A stretch of 4,038 nt of DNA. It comes from a virus. Its lineage: Duplodnaviria; Heunggongvirae; Uroviricota; Caudoviricetes. The stretch is taken from IMG/VR virus record IMGVR_UViG_2703719368_000026. The stretch is one strand, 5' to 3'. The translations under genes were made by a program, and so were the position numbers. This document shows, in pieces, positions 1-3,474 of this stretch. Positions within the stretch are counted from its first letter, which is position 1. Each line of letters begins with the position of its first letter. The notes beneath the pieces are model-generated. The model did not search any database. It worked only from the letters and a program-made list of their open reading frames with translations, and was not told the origin of the DNA.

Positions 1-1119
1 TCAAATAACCAACTTAACCCATTCCTGACCTCGAGTATCGTTATAGCGATCGGTGGTTGCCTGGACTTTATGTCCTAGTAATGTTTTTGTATCGATACCC
101 TGTGCACGGTACAGCCGTTCTGATAGAGAGCGTTGTTCATGAAATGTTGGCGGAGTTTTTCCTGCTGGTGGAATTACCCCAGCCAGATCCCGTGCTTTGG
201 CAAAGTAGTCGCTCAGGTTGTCTTTACTCATCGGCTTCGGTTGTTTCTGGTGCCGACTATGGATTAGATATGGACTTAATATTCTGTCTCGGCACCCATC
301 AATAACTTCTTTTAACGTTATCCCAATGGCATCACAGCGTAGTGTAAGCGGTAACGCCAGACGCATTCCGGTTTTTCCCTGGGTGATATGCAAGTGTTCG
401 TTCCACACATCTGAAAAACGCATGTGGCAAATGTCATCACGGCGCTGACCAGTAACAATCGCAAGAAGCATTGCGTTACGGATAAAGTGTTTTTCAGGCG
501 TTGCATTGTAAATTTTTTGCCAGTCTTCCATGGTGAGCCTGGCTCTGGTTACTTTAGGGATCGGTTTACGGGTAGCCTCCGGAGGATTCCATCCAGGAGG
601 AACTTCCCCTGCATGCTGTGCTTCTTTATAAATATCAACCCATAATCCACGATTTACTCTCGCTGTACTGACCATGTCTTTATCCAGCCACTCATCCAGT
701 ATTAATGCAAAGTCTCTTACTTCCAGTTCTTTCAATGGGTGGTTTCCCAGACGGGAAACCAGGTATGCAGCCATTCGAGTTTTTTCTTTGTGAGTTGTAG
801 CTGCAATATCTCCATTTTTCAGTCGCGTGTCCTGTATTTTCAGATATCGATCAACCCATGCCTTTAATCTGATACCCCGACGTTTTGTTGCTGACGGACT
901 TTCATCAATTTTGCGCATGAAATATTCAGCTTCTGCTGCAGCTATTCGCTGATTGGCTGTGGAAGCGATTTTTTCTGCCTTACCTTTGTCTGTTCCGAGT
1001 CCGTGAAATTTTCCAGTCACAGGATTTTTATACTGGTAGTAAACTCTGCCAGTTCTGCGATCAAACTTTTCGTAAAGACCGGCTACGTCAGTGCTGTTTT
1101 TTCGTGGCCTCGGTGACAT
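1..1119 (-). CDS. int: Tyrosine site-specific recombinase (lambda-family integrase), complete
   Basis: 372-aa ORF. The C-terminal translation carries the lambda Int catalytic pattern (HEQRSLS ... LLGHK ... DRY, matching H-x-L-R / LLGH / nucleophile Tyr). ATG at 1119 is preceded by an AAGGAG Shine-Dalgarno (plus-strand CTCCTT 1131-1136). The start is overlapped by the 3' end of xis, as in lambda. The stop codon is window bases 1-3, so attL/attP core would lie just outside the window. Confidence 0.9.
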   Translation of the reverse strand: MSPRPRKNSTDVAGLYEKFDRRTGRVYYQYKNPVTGKFHGLGTDKGKAEKIASTANQRIAAAEAEYFMRKIDESPSATKRRGIRLKAWVDRYLKIQDTRLKNGDIAATTHKEKTRMAAYLVSRLGNHPLKELEVRDFALILDEWLDKDMVSTARVNRGLWVDIYKEAQHAGEVPPGWNPPEATRKPIPKVTRARLTMEDWQKIYNATPEKHFIRNAMLLAIVTGQRRDDICHMRFSDVWNEHLHITQGKTGMRLALPLTLRCDAIGITLKEVIDGCRDRILSPYLIHSRHQKQPKPMSKDNLSDYFAKARDLAGVIPPAGKTPPTFHEQRSLSERLYRAQGIDTKTLLGHKVQATTDRYNDTRGQEWVKLVI

Positions 1120-1357
1120 GAGTTAAAATCTCCTTCAGTGCATCATCATCGCCAGTATGAATTTCCGGCGCAATTCCCGTTTCACCAGGCCCAACAAATA
1201 CTGCTCGGCGATCTATCAGCCAACGCCCACGAATTTTTTGTGGTCTTGGAACGATGTATCCTAGTTTTCCGTATTTCACCAGGGTAGTGTTTGTTATTGG
1301 GAGACTGAACCGTTTTGGTTTCCACTCGTCGAGCGTTATCAGGTACTGTTCGCTCAT
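1088..1357 (-). CDS. xis: Excisionase (lambda Xis-like)
   Basis: Translation MSEQYLITLDEWKPKRFSL...GRWLIDRRAVFVGP resembles the lambda Xis N-terminus (MYLTLQEW...) and winged-helix core. ATG at 1357 has a GGAG Shine-Dalgarno 8 nt upstream; the ORF track extends 3 codons further to a GTG at 1366. The 3' end overlaps the int start by 32 nt. Confidence 0.75.
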   Translation of the reverse strand: MSEQYLITLDEWKPKRFSLPITNTTLVKYGKLGYIVPRPQKIRGRWLIDRRAVFVGPGETGIAPEIHTGDDDALKEILTHVTEATKKQH

Positions 1358-1375
1358 GGCTATCACTCCGGAACG

Positions 1376-1441: not shown

Positions 1442-1720
1442 TCAGTTTTTGCCAGATAAGTAACGCCACGGGCAGGGGATCCCCTGCCGTTCGTATGAAC
1501 GGCGCAAAATCGTGTTGTCGAAGTTGGCTCCATTTCCCCAGACCTGAACAAAAAATTCACCGGAGTTTTCGTCGATAAATTCCCGCAATTGTAACAGTGC
1601 ATCATCTAACGGGATTTCATCGGTCATAATGGCAGATTGCGCTTCGCGTGATTGCTTAAGCCACCATTTAATGGTGTCCCTCGCCGTGTGCTTTCGTGTT
1701 GTGTGCCTGCTTTTTACCAC
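1442..1720 (-). CDS. Hypothetical protein in the leftward operon; possible remnant of a larger gene
   Basis: 92-codon ORF beginning with GTG at 1720; first in-frame ATG is at 1627, and no convincing RBS was seen for either. Contains GNGANFD, which weakly resembles the exo II motif (HNAxFD) of DEDD-type 3'-5' exonucleases, but the ORF is too short for a complete domain. An 18-bp perfect palindrome (1471-1488) lies in its 3' end. Coding status uncertain. Confidence 0.35.
   Translation of the reverse strand: MVKSRHTTRKHTARDTIKWWLKQSREAQSAIMTDEIPLDDALLQLREFIDENSGEFFVQVWGNGANFDNTILRRSYERQGIPCPWRYLSGKN
1471..1488. repeat. 18-bp perfect GC-rich palindrome GGCAGGGGATCCCCTGCC
   Basis: Read directly; centred on GGATCC. 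Lies in the 3' end of the 1442..1720 ORF (encodes QGIPCPW). No U-tract on either strand. Confidence 0.7.
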
Positions 1721-1744
1721 GTCAGGCGAGGTGGTCCCCGTTAT

Positions 1745-1790
1745 TCCCCAACAACAAGGATCTTGTTAATCTGGATATCCCCAACAACAA
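1745..1790. repeat. Two exact 13-bp direct repeats TCCCCAACAACAA (1745-1757 and 1778-1790) upstream of the cargo ORF
   Basis: Read directly: the repeats are 33 bp apart start-to-start. The second abuts the AAGAG Shine-Dalgarno, and the first bracket-repeat copy lies between them. Confidence 0.7.
1763..1780. repeat. Left copy of bracket repeat TTGTTAA-TCTGGATATCC (13-bp inverted repeat partner plus TTGTTAA direct repeat)
   Basis: AATCTGGATATCC (1768-1780) is the exact reverse complement of GGATATCCAGATT (2335-2347). TTGTTAA (1763-1769) is repeated directly at 2346-2352. The core GGATATCC is itself palindromic. Confidence 0.7.
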
Positions 1791-1804: not shown

Positions 1805-2320
1805 GTGATCGCTGAATTAACGGCAGCAATGACGGCTATTCGTGAAACCGCCCAGATTGCAAAACTAATGAACGAGGCAAAAACTCAAGCTGAAGTAAAT
1901 GCGGCTATTGGTGAACTGAACTCAAAGCTTGCATCTATTCAGCGCGAATGCGTGTCTCTCGTTGAGCTGGTGGGCACTTATCAAGAAATAAATGCTTCTC
2001 TCAAAGCTAAAATTGCAGAATTTGAAAACTTTGAGGCTCAGACGGAAGGTTATATCCTTAGCCAACTTGAGTCGGGAACTTTTGTGTACTCGAAGGAGGT
2101 AACCGTGAACGGCGGCAGCATAATCATGCATCTTTGTCCAAAATGTTTTGGACAAAAGATAGTATCGATACTTCAGCCATTCCCGGTTAGAGAATATGAA
2201 TTTTTTCATAAAAGCAGGTGCCTGTACTGTAAAAATCAGTTTCTTATGAATAAAAATCCGGATTACGTATCACCTCCATCTATTGAAGAGTTGGCCAGAA
2301 AACTGAACGGCAATCTGTAG
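1805..2320 (+). CDS. Uncharacterised coiled-coil / C4 zinc-ribbon protein (candidate moron or exclusion/defence cargo gene)
   Basis: Long plus-strand ORF convergent with the leftward operon. Most plausible start is GTG 1805 with AAGAG (1792-1796) 8 nt upstream; alternative ATG at 1829. The TTG-initiated extension back to 1652 is rejected. The N-terminal ~100 residues are Ala/Glu/Lys/Gln-rich amphipathic helix; the C-terminus has CPKC-(24 aa)-CLYC. Looks AT-rich by eye relative to flanks, especially the 3' half (not computed). Stop TAG at 2318-2320. Confidence 0.65.
   Translation: MIAELTAAMTAIRETAQIAKLMNEAKTQAEVNAAIGELNSKLASIQRECVSLVELVGTYQEINASLKAKIAEFENFEAQTEGYILSQLESGTFVYSKEVTVNGGSIIMHLCPKCFGQKIVSILQPFPVREYEFFHKSRCLYCKNQFLMNKNPDYVSPPSIEELARKLNGNL
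2133..2156. repeat. Palindrome TTTGTCCAAAA-TG-TTTTGGACAAA inside the cargo ORF (11-bp arms, 2-nt spacer)
   Basis: Read directly. It encodes the LCPKCFGQ zinc-knuckle residues of the 1805..2320 protein. Confidence 0.7.
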
Positions 2321-2334
2321 ATTTTTACTGTTAT

Positions 2335-2352
2335 GGATATCCAGATTGTTAA
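2335..2352. repeat. Right copy of bracket repeat GGATATCCAGA-TTGTTAA
   Basis: Partner of 1763-1780, located 15 nt after the stop of the 1805..2320 ORF. Confidence 0.7.
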
Positions 2353-2359
2353 AGAGCAT

Positions 2360-2383
2360 GCCGGATGCTTGCTTGTGTCCGGC
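2360..2383. repeat. Hairpin-capable inverted repeat GCCGGA-n12-TCCGGC between the convergent cargo ORF and the leftward small ORF
   Basis: 6-bp GC-rich stem with a 12-nt loop in the 114-bp convergent intergenic gap. The minus strand follows with CUCUUU; the plus strand has no U-tract. Weak as a terminator. Confidence 0.3.
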
Positions 2384-2434: not shown

Positions 2435-2665
2435 TTAGTCAGAGTTTCTTGCTAACCAGCGACGCGCGCCAGATTCGGTTTTAAACGTTTTGCTTTTGGT
2501 ATACGTCATCGCGGTGAACGTGCCGTCCTGGTTGGGAAACACGCCGCACACCAGAGATTCGTTGTTGCCAAGATCAAGAGTATCCATGCTGACCTCATAT
2601 CCCCTTAACGCCGGGGTAGCGGAACAAAAACCTGCTGCATAGTTAAAGTTGAACCCTGCCGTCAT
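2435..2665 (-). CDS. Small hypothetical protein, first ORF downstream of the P_L-like promoter (YdaF/YdaG-position ORF)
   Basis: 76-codon ORF with ATG at 2665 and a possible GAGG Shine-Dalgarno about 9 nt upstream. An internal ATG at 2587 (also GAGG-preceded) would give a 50-aa product. It sits where Rac carries ydaG/ydaF, but I cannot confirm sequence identity from memory. Not Arg-rich at the N-terminus, so not an obvious N-type antiterminator. Confidence 0.4.
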   Translation of the reverse strand: MTAGFNFNYAAGFCSATPALRGYEVSMDTLDLGNNESLVCGVFPNQDGTFTAMTYTKSKTFKTESGARRWLARNSD

Positions 2666-2765: not shown

Positions 2766-2794
2766 ACTATAGGAAATGCCTAATTGCTTGTCAA
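2766..2794 (-). promoter_or_regulatory. P_L-like sigma70 promoter for the leftward early operon
   Basis: On the minus strand: -35 TTGACA (plus coordinates 2789-2794), 17-nt spacer, -10 TATAGT (2766-2771). Predicted start near 2759, giving a ~90-nt leader before the ORF at 2665. Embedded in operator half-sites. Confidence 0.6.
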
Positions 2795-2902: not shown

Positions 2903-3379
2903 TTAAGTTCCTGTCTTGGTGATGTTCTGGCTTTTCCGTTTTGATTCTTGATTTTTCAGATAGTTAGCTACCTTCATTTCCATTGCGGCAATGTAGGCAC
3001 GAACGTCATGATCAACCCAACTAGGCTCCGTAGCATTTCCAGATAAGAGGAAAGCCACAATTGCTCTTTTTTCATCAGAGGCGGCTTGATAAAGGCTGTT
3101 TATGTCTAAAAGTTCACTTTTTGTATCTGAAGTGGATGGGGTTGGTATGGGGTATTCGTTAAGCCCCCAATGCTCTGGACCAACCACATCAGAAAAGAAA
3201 CGCCATAGTTCTGGAAGTTTGTCTTTACTTATCGAACCTTTCTTAATCCAGTCATGGATTGATGGTGGTTGGACTTTGAAATGACGTGCGATTTCCGCCT
3301 TTGATTTGACGGCTCCTGATGCAATTTTTTTGTTAATGGCCTGCTCTATCGCTCGGCCTAAGTCTTTACCACTAAGCAT
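2903..3379 (-). CDS. racR: Prophage repressor, RacR-like (Cro/CI-type HTH, no S24 peptidase domain)
   Basis: 158-aa ORF, the same length as E. coli K-12 RacR as I recall it. HTH segment SKAEIARHFKVQPPSIHDWIKKGSI. ATG at 3379 has an AGGAGA Shine-Dalgarno about 10 nt upstream (plus-strand CTCCT 3391-3395). Divergent from ydaS with operator repeats between them. Stop TAA at 2903-2905. Confidence 0.85.
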   Translation of the reverse strand: MLSGKDLGRAIEQAINKKIASGAVKSKAEIARHFKVQPPSIHDWIKKGSISKDKLPELWRFFSDVVGPEHWGLNEYPIPTPSTSDTKSELLDINSLYQAASDEKRAIVAFLLSGNATEPSWVDHDVRAYIAAMEMKVANYLKNQESKRKSQNITKTGT

Positions 3380-3406: not shown

Positions 3407-3474
3407 ATTAGGCAATACCTACTCTCGAAGCGTTAGGCATAGCCTATTGACAATTGCATTAGGCTAAGCCTAAT
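3407..3474. promoter_or_regulatory. O_R-like operator cluster (ATTAGGC/GCCTAAT half-sites, including 17-bp palindrome ATTAGGC-TAA-GCCTAAT)
   Basis: ATTAGGC at 3407-3413; TTAGGC-ata-GCCTA palindrome at 3433-3446; ATTAGGC-taa-GCCTAAT palindrome at 3458-3474, lying between -35 and -10. The 12-mer GCCTATTGACAA (3442-3453) is identical to the minus-strand 12-mer at P_L. Confidence 0.55.

Follow-up and report, generated by a model that had tools for sequence, protein, structure and literature searches.

A perfect 24-base palindrome at a zinc knuckle of a Rip1-like prophage gene: probably a product of codon choice

A cargo gene of a Rac-like Escherichia coli prophage carries a perfect palindrome over the codons of a zinc knuckle. 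From the sequence of this palindrome, its reading frame, the distribution of its alleles and the absence of conservation and covariation, we infer that it is probably a coincidence of codon choice with no independent function. Two alleles of the site are common, and the perfect form, which is one of them, may owe its origin to quasipalindrome correction. The initial annotation had offered three readings of the site, namely a protein-binding site, an mRNA hairpin and a coincidence of codon choice at the CxxC knuckle. It is the last of these that agrees both with the behaviour of redrawn codons and with the finding that the repeat is broken or absent in most relatives.

The window, which here means the whole analysed stretch of 4,038 nucleotides, is part of a 48.5-kb Rac-like prophage adjoining potC in an O157-type E. 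coli. The features of the window are listed in Table 1. The cargo open reading frame with the palindrome occupies a cargo-swap site of Rac/Qin-like prophages.

Table 1. Features of the window discussed in the text, in order of position.
Feature	Position	Strand	Remarks
Integrase	1-1119	-	
Excisionase	1088-1366	-	
Truncated 3'-5' exonuclease	1442-1720	-	
Host gene of the palindrome, Rip1-family homologue	1805-2320	+	171 aa, GTG start; RefSeq WP_054428263
Extended imperfect hairpin	2123-2169	+	20 pairs and two bulges; predicted for TGT alleles only
Left arm, TTTGTCCAAAA	2133-2143	+	cTT TGT CCA AAA = Leu110-Cys111-Pro112-Lys113
Spacer, TG	2144-2145	+	2 nt; first two bases of the Cys114 codon
Right arm, TTTTGGACAAA	2146-2156	+	tgT TTT GGA CAA Aag = Cys114-Phe115-Gly116-Gln117-Lys118
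Second zinc knuckle, Cys139-Leu-Tyr-Cys142	2219-2230	+	TGC CTG TAC TGT; identified by Cys invariance
DUF1391	2435-2665	-	
pL-like promoter, TTGACA-17-TATAGT	2766-2794	-	11/12 match; overlaps ATTAGGC repeats
racR	2903-3379	-	
YdaS-like gene, then YdaT-like gene	after racR	+	

The site had been described initially as a 24-bp inverted repeat coinciding with the CPKC codons of the cargo frame, and both the repeat and its frame were confirmed. The arms are complementary at all 11 positions across the 2-nt spacer, and the first pair outside the 24 bases (C2132/A2157) is a mismatch. The palindrome is the sole perfect inverted repeat of such size within the window. It starts 330 bp into the coding sequence, where codons 110-118 (Table 1) encode LCPKCFGQK, and both knuckle cysteine codons, 2135-2137 for Cys111 and 2144-2146 for Cys114, lie inside it. 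The third base of the Cys111 codon, at 2137, has as its pairing partner the third base of the GGA codon, at 2152. In the RNA form, the innermost A-U pair must open, which gives a loop of 4 nt. The palindrome was also said to be unrelated to the ATTAGGC operator motif, and this stands: all five ATTAGGC occurrences in the window are confined to 2778-2809 and 3407-3474.

The host gene, labelled as a hypothetical protein in RefSeq, can be assigned by sequence and fold comparison to the Rip1 (ring interacting pore 1) family. An AlphaFold (AF2) model made from 43 homologues (pLDDT 91.5) features helices at residues 3-23 and 28-79 followed by six strands, and the beta-rich C-terminal domain carries four cysteines; this layout agrees with the Rip1 family, in which a pore-forming helical half precedes a ring-contacting domain. 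These residues, C111, C114, C139 (codon 2219-2221) and C142 (codon 2228-2230), are invariant in the 43 homologues, and the initial reading of CPKC as a zinc knuckle was borne out in that the motif belongs to a four-cysteine zinc ribbon. The best Foldseek match was PDB 9oox, HK446 Rip1 with the T6 small terminase (E = 5.9e-7, probability 1.00, target-normalised TM 0.71). An hmmsearch of the family profile against the 9oox chain gave E = 1.1e-23 over residues 6-151, and BLASTP against HK446 Rip1 gave E = 3e-13 at 27% identity. A tblastn search also found hkaP of HK620/HK630 and the gene in Pseudomonas phages JBD30, DMS3 and D3112. In PHROGs, the protein falls into phrog_1244 (‘unknown function’); the only hits from Pfam and PADLOC were a coiled-coil match below threshold and a spurious match to REase_I, and a literature search under its accession found nothing. 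About 12% of complete E. coli genomes carry the gene. A 2026 review describes Rip1 as a single-protein defence encoded by prophages, which builds a 12-mer on the terminase or portal ring of the invading phage and opens a pore in the membrane (PMC13434031; also PMC12908700); once triggered by a small-terminase or portal ring, it blocks the superinfecting phage (PMC13434031). By analogy, a putative anti-phage role is predicted for the Rip1-like allele of the window.

The initial annotation estimated that a palindrome of this length is unlikely by chance in 4 kb. For a single window the estimate is sound. In 2000 dinucleotide-preserving shuffles of the window, scanned for perfect inverted repeats with arms of at least 11 bp, such repeats occurred in 0.85% of shuffles with a spacer of up to 4, in 1.3% with up to 10 and in 2.4% with up to 20; by this measure the palindrome is unusual for one 4-kb window. 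In a genome-wide scan, such repeats are expected by chance, as extrapolation of the shuffle rate gives roughly 10-30 cases per 5.5-Mb genome. The real 48.5-kb prophage contains six perfect repeats with arms of at least 11 bp, far above the shuffle prediction. The other five are all intergenic, and the palindrome is the one intragenic repeat of the six, a point that counts against mere coincidence.

In a second chance test, the protein was kept fixed and the codons were redrawn from family usage. An arm of at least 11 bp appeared in 48 of 5000 redraws (0.96%), and in 47 of the 48 cases it lay at the palindrome's own site. The exact observed sequence was produced in 0.36% of the 5000 redraws, and the product of the codon frequencies for the palindrome is 5e-4 to 1.6e-3. 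Since 47 of the 48 palindromic redraws fell at one spot, LCPKCFGQK must be intrinsically near-palindromic when it is written with A/T-ending codons.

The palindrome can thus be regarded as a probable by-product of the coding sequence and not as a cis-acting element. The A/T-ending codons that the gene favours (CTT, TGT, CCA, AAA, TGT, TTT, GGA, CAA) make the peptide read as 11 + 2 + 11. The AAA-A/T-TTT symmetry is supplied by Lys AAA facing Phe TTT. The CC/GG symmetry comes from Pro and Gly, with Pro CCA facing the TGG that spans TTT-GGA, and the TTTGT/ACAAA symmetry from Leu-Cys TTTGT facing the ACAAA of GGA-CAA-A (Gln-Lys). A 10/11 near-palindrome accompanies the LCPKCFGQK peptide in one subclade of the family, and the perfect form is this near-palindrome with a single synonymous C-to-T change at 2137. 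The change may be an ordinary transition or a quasipalindrome-templated mutation.

Homologues were taken from phage records, from E. coli genomes and a set with one genome for each species, and from IMG/VR contigs and assemblies. The LCPKCFGQK peptide is restricted to the closest relatives (P0001-P0027). Elsewhere in the family, the knuckle reads CPLCYSK, CPHCFHQ, CPNCF.., CPQCF.., CPKCFTQ or CPKCFLE, and relatives with these other knuckles have no inverted repeat at the site; on both strands, their core folds reach just 0 to -2.5 kcal/mol. Across the family, then, the palindrome lacks conservation. Among the 29 distinct coding-sequence alleles with LCPKCFGQK, one of the 24 bases is variable, namely 2137 (T in 16 of the alleles, C in the other 13). 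A TGC codon at this position places an uncompensated internal C·A mismatch opposite A2152. This broken form was found in 54 IMG/VR contigs; across the family, the codon is TGC in 15 of the 20 representatives. The exact TGT form was found in 25 IMG/VR contigs, once per contig, and 24 of the 25 belong to the collected homologues of the gene. A compensating synonymous change of GGA to GGG together with TGC gave no match in 2.9 million viral contigs.

The site is present in 674 complete E. coli genomes; the 24-mer is exact in 332 of these and carries one mismatch in 313, two in 26 and more in 3. Each of the 15 genomes listed for an exact match belongs to O157:H7 or a similar strain and has two copies, and the exact class thus appears to be largely O157:H7. 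One E. coli allele carries a Pro-to-Gln replacement (CCA to CAA), which brings the palindrome down to 9/11. The L092-type alleles keep all 24 bases in a protein that is just 65% identical. The state of 2137 differs between close relatives in two species: in E. coli between the window and allele L001, and in Salmonella between alleles L101 and L104, whose C-terminal halves are 98.7% identical. Base 2137 has therefore changed at least twice or been moved by recombination. Its family-wide rate of synonymous difference, 0.39, equals the gene average of 0.40. The initial annotation had proposed to look for homologues that keep the CPKCFGQ peptide while synonymous changes destroy the palindrome. Such a change was found, in that the TGT/TGC difference breaks the palindrome in the commonest allele, but the free variation that had been envisaged was not, as the other seven degenerate codons are invariant in the 29 alleles.

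This invariance was compared with the rest of the gene. Within the subclade (29 alleles), one of the nine degenerate codons of the block varies, against 41-52% across the remaining C-terminal half; the depletion is mild and not decisive, with a nominal P of 0.06-0.014, as a post hoc value from non-independent alleles. The 9-codon block ranks 12th lowest of 151 for synonymous variation. Family-wide, the synonymous fraction at the block is 0.227, which ranks 15 of 111, against 0.40 overall. Constraint is much stronger in the LKAKIAEFE block (0.06-0.16): the LKAKIA codons CTC AAA GCA AAA ATT GCA are near-invariant in the 20 representatives, each of the GCA codons being replaced by GCT or ACA in 2-3 of the 20. 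The gene is a mosaic, with a nucleotide identity of 50-70% in the N-terminal half and 76-96% in the C-terminal half, and this mosaicism gives the synonymous-site argument less weight; a recent recombination tract was considered as an account of the invariant codon run. Alleles L101 and L104 have four base differences downstream of codon 65. Three of these, the synonymous transitions at 2131, 2137 and 2164, fall within the extended stem, where each improves the pairing in L104. The rough post-hoc probability of such a cluster is about 0.003-0.01.

Functional readings of the site were weighed against these observations. A double-stranded DNA binding site, an operator or similar, for a dimeric phage or host regulator, possibly an autoregulatory one, would suit the perfect dyad symmetry over 24 bp, as this is the type of palindrome used by dimeric regulators. 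However, the site lies in the middle of a coding sequence, away from a promoter, the dyad is lost at homologous loci, and ATTAGGC is the motif of the immunity operators here. A search that allowed up to three mismatches found the dyad just once in the window and in the whole 48.5-kb prophage, where near-matches to the half-sites occur at chance level. The homologue of the gene product binds terminase rings, and not DNA, and is a pore in the membrane. For a Rip1-type product, a pore and terminase sensor, there is no evident need to bind its own gene, so that an auto-operator loses its rationale, and the proposal of a protein-binding site in the initial annotation is not retained; an operator here is extremely improbable. 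The GTCCA...TGGAC portion, which we take to resemble the operator half-sites of P22 Mnt, was set aside, since the spacing differs. Signals in transcription and translation were sought as well. No intrinsic terminator was found at the palindrome and no terminator-like site on either strand between 1400 and 2950: the stem is A·T at 8 of 11 pairs, and the bases that follow it, AGATAGTATC on the plus strand and GATGCATGAT on the minus strand, contain no T-run. There is no promoter-like site at the palindrome, the upstream sequence ATAATCATGCATC has no X XXY YYZ heptamer 5-9 nt before the stem that would signal a frameshift, and no conserved alternative-frame ORF is evident at the site.

The mRNA hairpin of the initial annotation, as a sense-strand element, is contradicted by the alleles. 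A hairpin in the sense mRNA might slow ribosomes at the first zinc knuckle or tune mRNA stability, and so set the dose of a potentially toxic pore. The local fold is indeed stable in TGT alleles, with a core of -10.2 kcal/mol and z from -3.0 to -3.9 for the 84-nt surroundings (in the window, MFE -26.9 kcal/mol and z -3.9; as DNA, -9.2 kcal/mol and z -4.7), and all three synonymous differences of L104 from L101 are better paired on the sense strand. In the majority allele, however, the C·A mismatch halves this stability (core -5.1 kcal/mol, z about -0.4 to -0.8), the compensated allele is absent, other members of the family do not fold in this way, and the upstream sequence is free of slippery heptamers. 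A 10-bp A/U-rich stem is also easily opened by elongating ribosomes. The outer stem of the extended hairpin is lost in L001 and L092. An RNAalifold consensus over 26 distinct alleles contained 0 pairs, the structure of the window differed little from column shuffles (67.3% against 65.9% paired cells, covariation score 0.124 against 0.124), and a scan of the window against Rfam 15 gave no match at E<=1. We consider a sense-strand role highly unlikely. On the antisense strand, the hairpin would belong to the leftward pL-like transcript, as an element of processing, pausing or stability for xis/int or as a point of sense/antisense contact. It is kept there in every LCPKCFGQK allele, because TGC yields a G·U in place of U-A (-9.6 kcal/mol against -10.2), and mild synonymous depletion accompanies it. 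The strong pL-like promoter is aimed at the gene, and the search for terminator-like sites gave none on the way from there to the palindrome; the transcript, if unstopped, would read the palindrome in antisense. Against this, the hairpin is missing in all other family members with the same orientation and locus, the outer-stem changes of L101 are mismatched on the antisense strand, and the hairpin has neither a U-tract nor an Rfam family. Read-through from pL is itself conjectural, and the exonuclease gene downstream is already truncated in the window. Such an antisense element is therefore very unlikely. Taking both strands together, a role as an RNA hairpin is unlikely, with the antisense form slightly ahead of the sense form. 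It is quite improbable that the dyad of the LCPKCFGQK subclade is a selected hairpin, most plausibly one on the antisense early-left (pL) transcript, where it would be a site of processing or pausing and would insulate or couple the int/xis operon and the counter-oriented defence gene; if it were, the mild synonymous depletion and the clustered Salmonella stem changes would be traces of that selection.

The codon-coincidence explanation leaves room for more than one mutational origin of the perfect form. One route is quasipalindrome template switching, in which the nascent strand, on a presumed 10/11 TGC ancestor, would use the opposite arm as its template, so that C2137 becomes T, recurrently and with no selection. 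This route refines the codon-coincidence explanation and is no competitor to it. In E. coli, imperfect inverted repeats are hotspots of template switching and are corrected toward perfect repeats (PMC7202029), and such correction has been proposed as the reason why perfect repeats are in excess and persist in Proteobacteria (PMC5941160), where the ratio of observed to expected repeats with 11-bp arms in non-coding DNA is about 20-25 (PMC5941160). In the present gene, 10/11 alleles are found side by side with 11/11 alleles, and in each of two species near-identical alleles are in different states. TGC is the commoner codon in the family, TGT occurs in at least two separate backgrounds beside near-identical TGC alleles, and the clustered Salmonella changes all raise complementarity, as template switching would predict. 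However, TGT is also found in L014 and L019, which have no partner arm, so that plain C-T transitions in either direction suffice. The three Salmonella changes are spread over both arms, which is more than a single switch can explain. Template switching is thus no more than a possible origin of the perfect allele.

The synonymous depletion, the 24 bases kept in L092-type alleles, the antisense G·U pair and the Salmonella cluster leave a small probability for a lineage-specific hairpin, and they are also expected from mutational bias. As a cis-element, the palindrome would be at most such a hairpin within one defence gene and of little import. The comparison of alleles strikes it from the candidate regulatory sites, and it illustrates that a short peptide (Cys-Pro-Lys-Cys-Phe-Gly-Gln), together with A/T-biased codon usage, can dictate a palindrome that looks statistically striking. 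A useful by-product of the analysis is the identification of the cargo ORF as a Rip1-family and putative anti-phage gene.

Comparison with known systems places both the gene and the repeat. The predicted protein resembles HK446 Rip1 in length (171 against 164 aa), in its long N-terminal helical region and in a C-terminal beta domain with four conserved cysteines, and the knuckle with the motif that follows it reads LCPKCFGQKIVSILQ here and LCAQCYESSVKSILQ in HK446. It is likewise prophage-borne, as is Rip1 of HK446 and of Pseudomonas Mu-like prophages. The identity to HK446 Rip1, in contrast, is just 27%, and the knuckle peptide LCAQCYESS of HK446 Rip1, judged as a peptide, cannot encode the palindrome. 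In the window, the gene lies between the truncated exonuclease gene and DUF1391/racR, whereas in the Pseudomonas phages it lies between terminase genes. The palindrome shares with lambdoid terminators and operator palindromes a dyad symmetry of comparable length. It differs from them in having no G+C-rich stem or T-run and in being intragenic, unrepeated and unconserved; the intergenic location type of those elements is shared by the prophage's other five perfect repeats. A further likeness is to the perfect repeats, of chance or quasipalindrome origin, in enterobacterial genomes (Lavi et al. 2018, PMC5941160; Klaric, Perr & Lovett 2020, PMC7202029), which likewise have 11-bp arms and a small spacer. 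As with those repeats, the palindrome is one base from a widespread imperfect form, and the perfecting change recurs in separate backgrounds. The published conservation analysis centred on non-coding repeats (PMC5941160); the palindrome described here, unlike them, is intragenic, and its symmetry is mostly dictated by amino acids.

The cargo ORF, the 171-aa gene that carries the 24-nt palindrome at its CPKC zinc-knuckle codons, encodes an anti-phage protein homologue of the Rip1 (ring interacting pore 1) family. The assignment is based on PDB entry 9oox, which was matched both by fold and by profile, and a tblastn search also matched the gene to hkaP of phages HK620 and HK630. Among the 5426 complete E. 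coli genomes searched, 674 contain the palindromic site inside the gene, mismatched versions included, and O157 strains have two copies each. The features located in and around the gene are listed in the table.

Features of the cargo gene and its surroundings
Feature	Position	Strand	Remarks
3'-5' exonuclease, truncated pseudogene	1442-1720 (locus L002, 7587-7988)	-	without N-terminus; adjoins the cargo gene
Conserved block, about 95 nt	~1697-1790	+	5' of the cargo gene
Cargo ORF, Rip1-family homologue	1805-2320	+	annotated as hypothetical protein
Imperfect GC-rich stem GCCGGATGCTTGCTTGTGTCCGGC	2350-2375	+	just 3' of the cargo gene stop codon
Near-consensus sigma-70 promoter, TTGACA-17-TATAGT	2766-2794	-	sequence match

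The family alignment demonstrates that the cargo gene is a mosaic of codons 1-65 and 66-171. Nucleotide identity between the window and the compared alleles L092, L101 and L104 is 50-70% in the N-terminal helical half versus 76-96% in the C-terminal half. At the junction, the codons for the peptide LKAKIA, CTC AAA GCA AAA ATT GCA, are nearly invariant among 20 representatives drawn from several genera. In the CPxC knuckle, the proline codon is CCA throughout 26 distinct alleles, a single Pro-to-Gln variant being the sole exception. This codon constancy may reflect a recombination junction or a constraint acting at the nucleotide level. The Salmonella alleles L101 and L104 feature only four differences across the 3' 318 nt, three of which are synonymous transitions within the extended hairpin around the palindrome (window equivalents 2131, 2137 and 2164), and pairing is better in the same allele at all three positions. 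Such clustering could be coincidental, or could stem from templated mutation, selection or a short conversion tract.

The conserved block upstream has the pattern GTTGTGTGCCTGCTTTT.ACCACGTCAGGCGAGGTGG...CCCCAACAACAAGGA...TAATCTGGATATCCCCAACAACAA, contains a GCCTG/CAGGC stem and two copies of CCCCAACAACAA, and has no match in Rfam. Roughly 2,390 E. coli genomes contain the initial ~40 to ~90 nt of this sequence, which at locus L005 precedes an entirely different cargo gene (148 aa). The block looks like a common promoter or leader at a cargo-swap hotspot.

The exonuclease gene is truncated, and the early-left region of the prophage is therefore partly decayed. In L191 (NZ_CP032808.1, 3283000-3331500), the 48.5-kb region that holds this same prophage, the large terminase gene is split by an IS3 insertion and the portal and gpJ genes are frameshifted; hence, the prophage is likely defective. 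At its far end lie genes for type III effectors, nleA and nleH1-2.

Downstream of the cargo gene, the GC-rich stem has no adjacent T-run on either strand and was not called in the terminator scan. The sigma-70 promoter is directed through DUF1391 and then antisense through the cargo gene. It overlaps two ATTAGGC repeats (2778-2784 and 2803-2809), and three further copies of this immunity-region operator motif are located at 3407-3474, in the racR/ydaS-like intergenic stretch. This promoter is probably the equivalent of pL, under the control of RacR.
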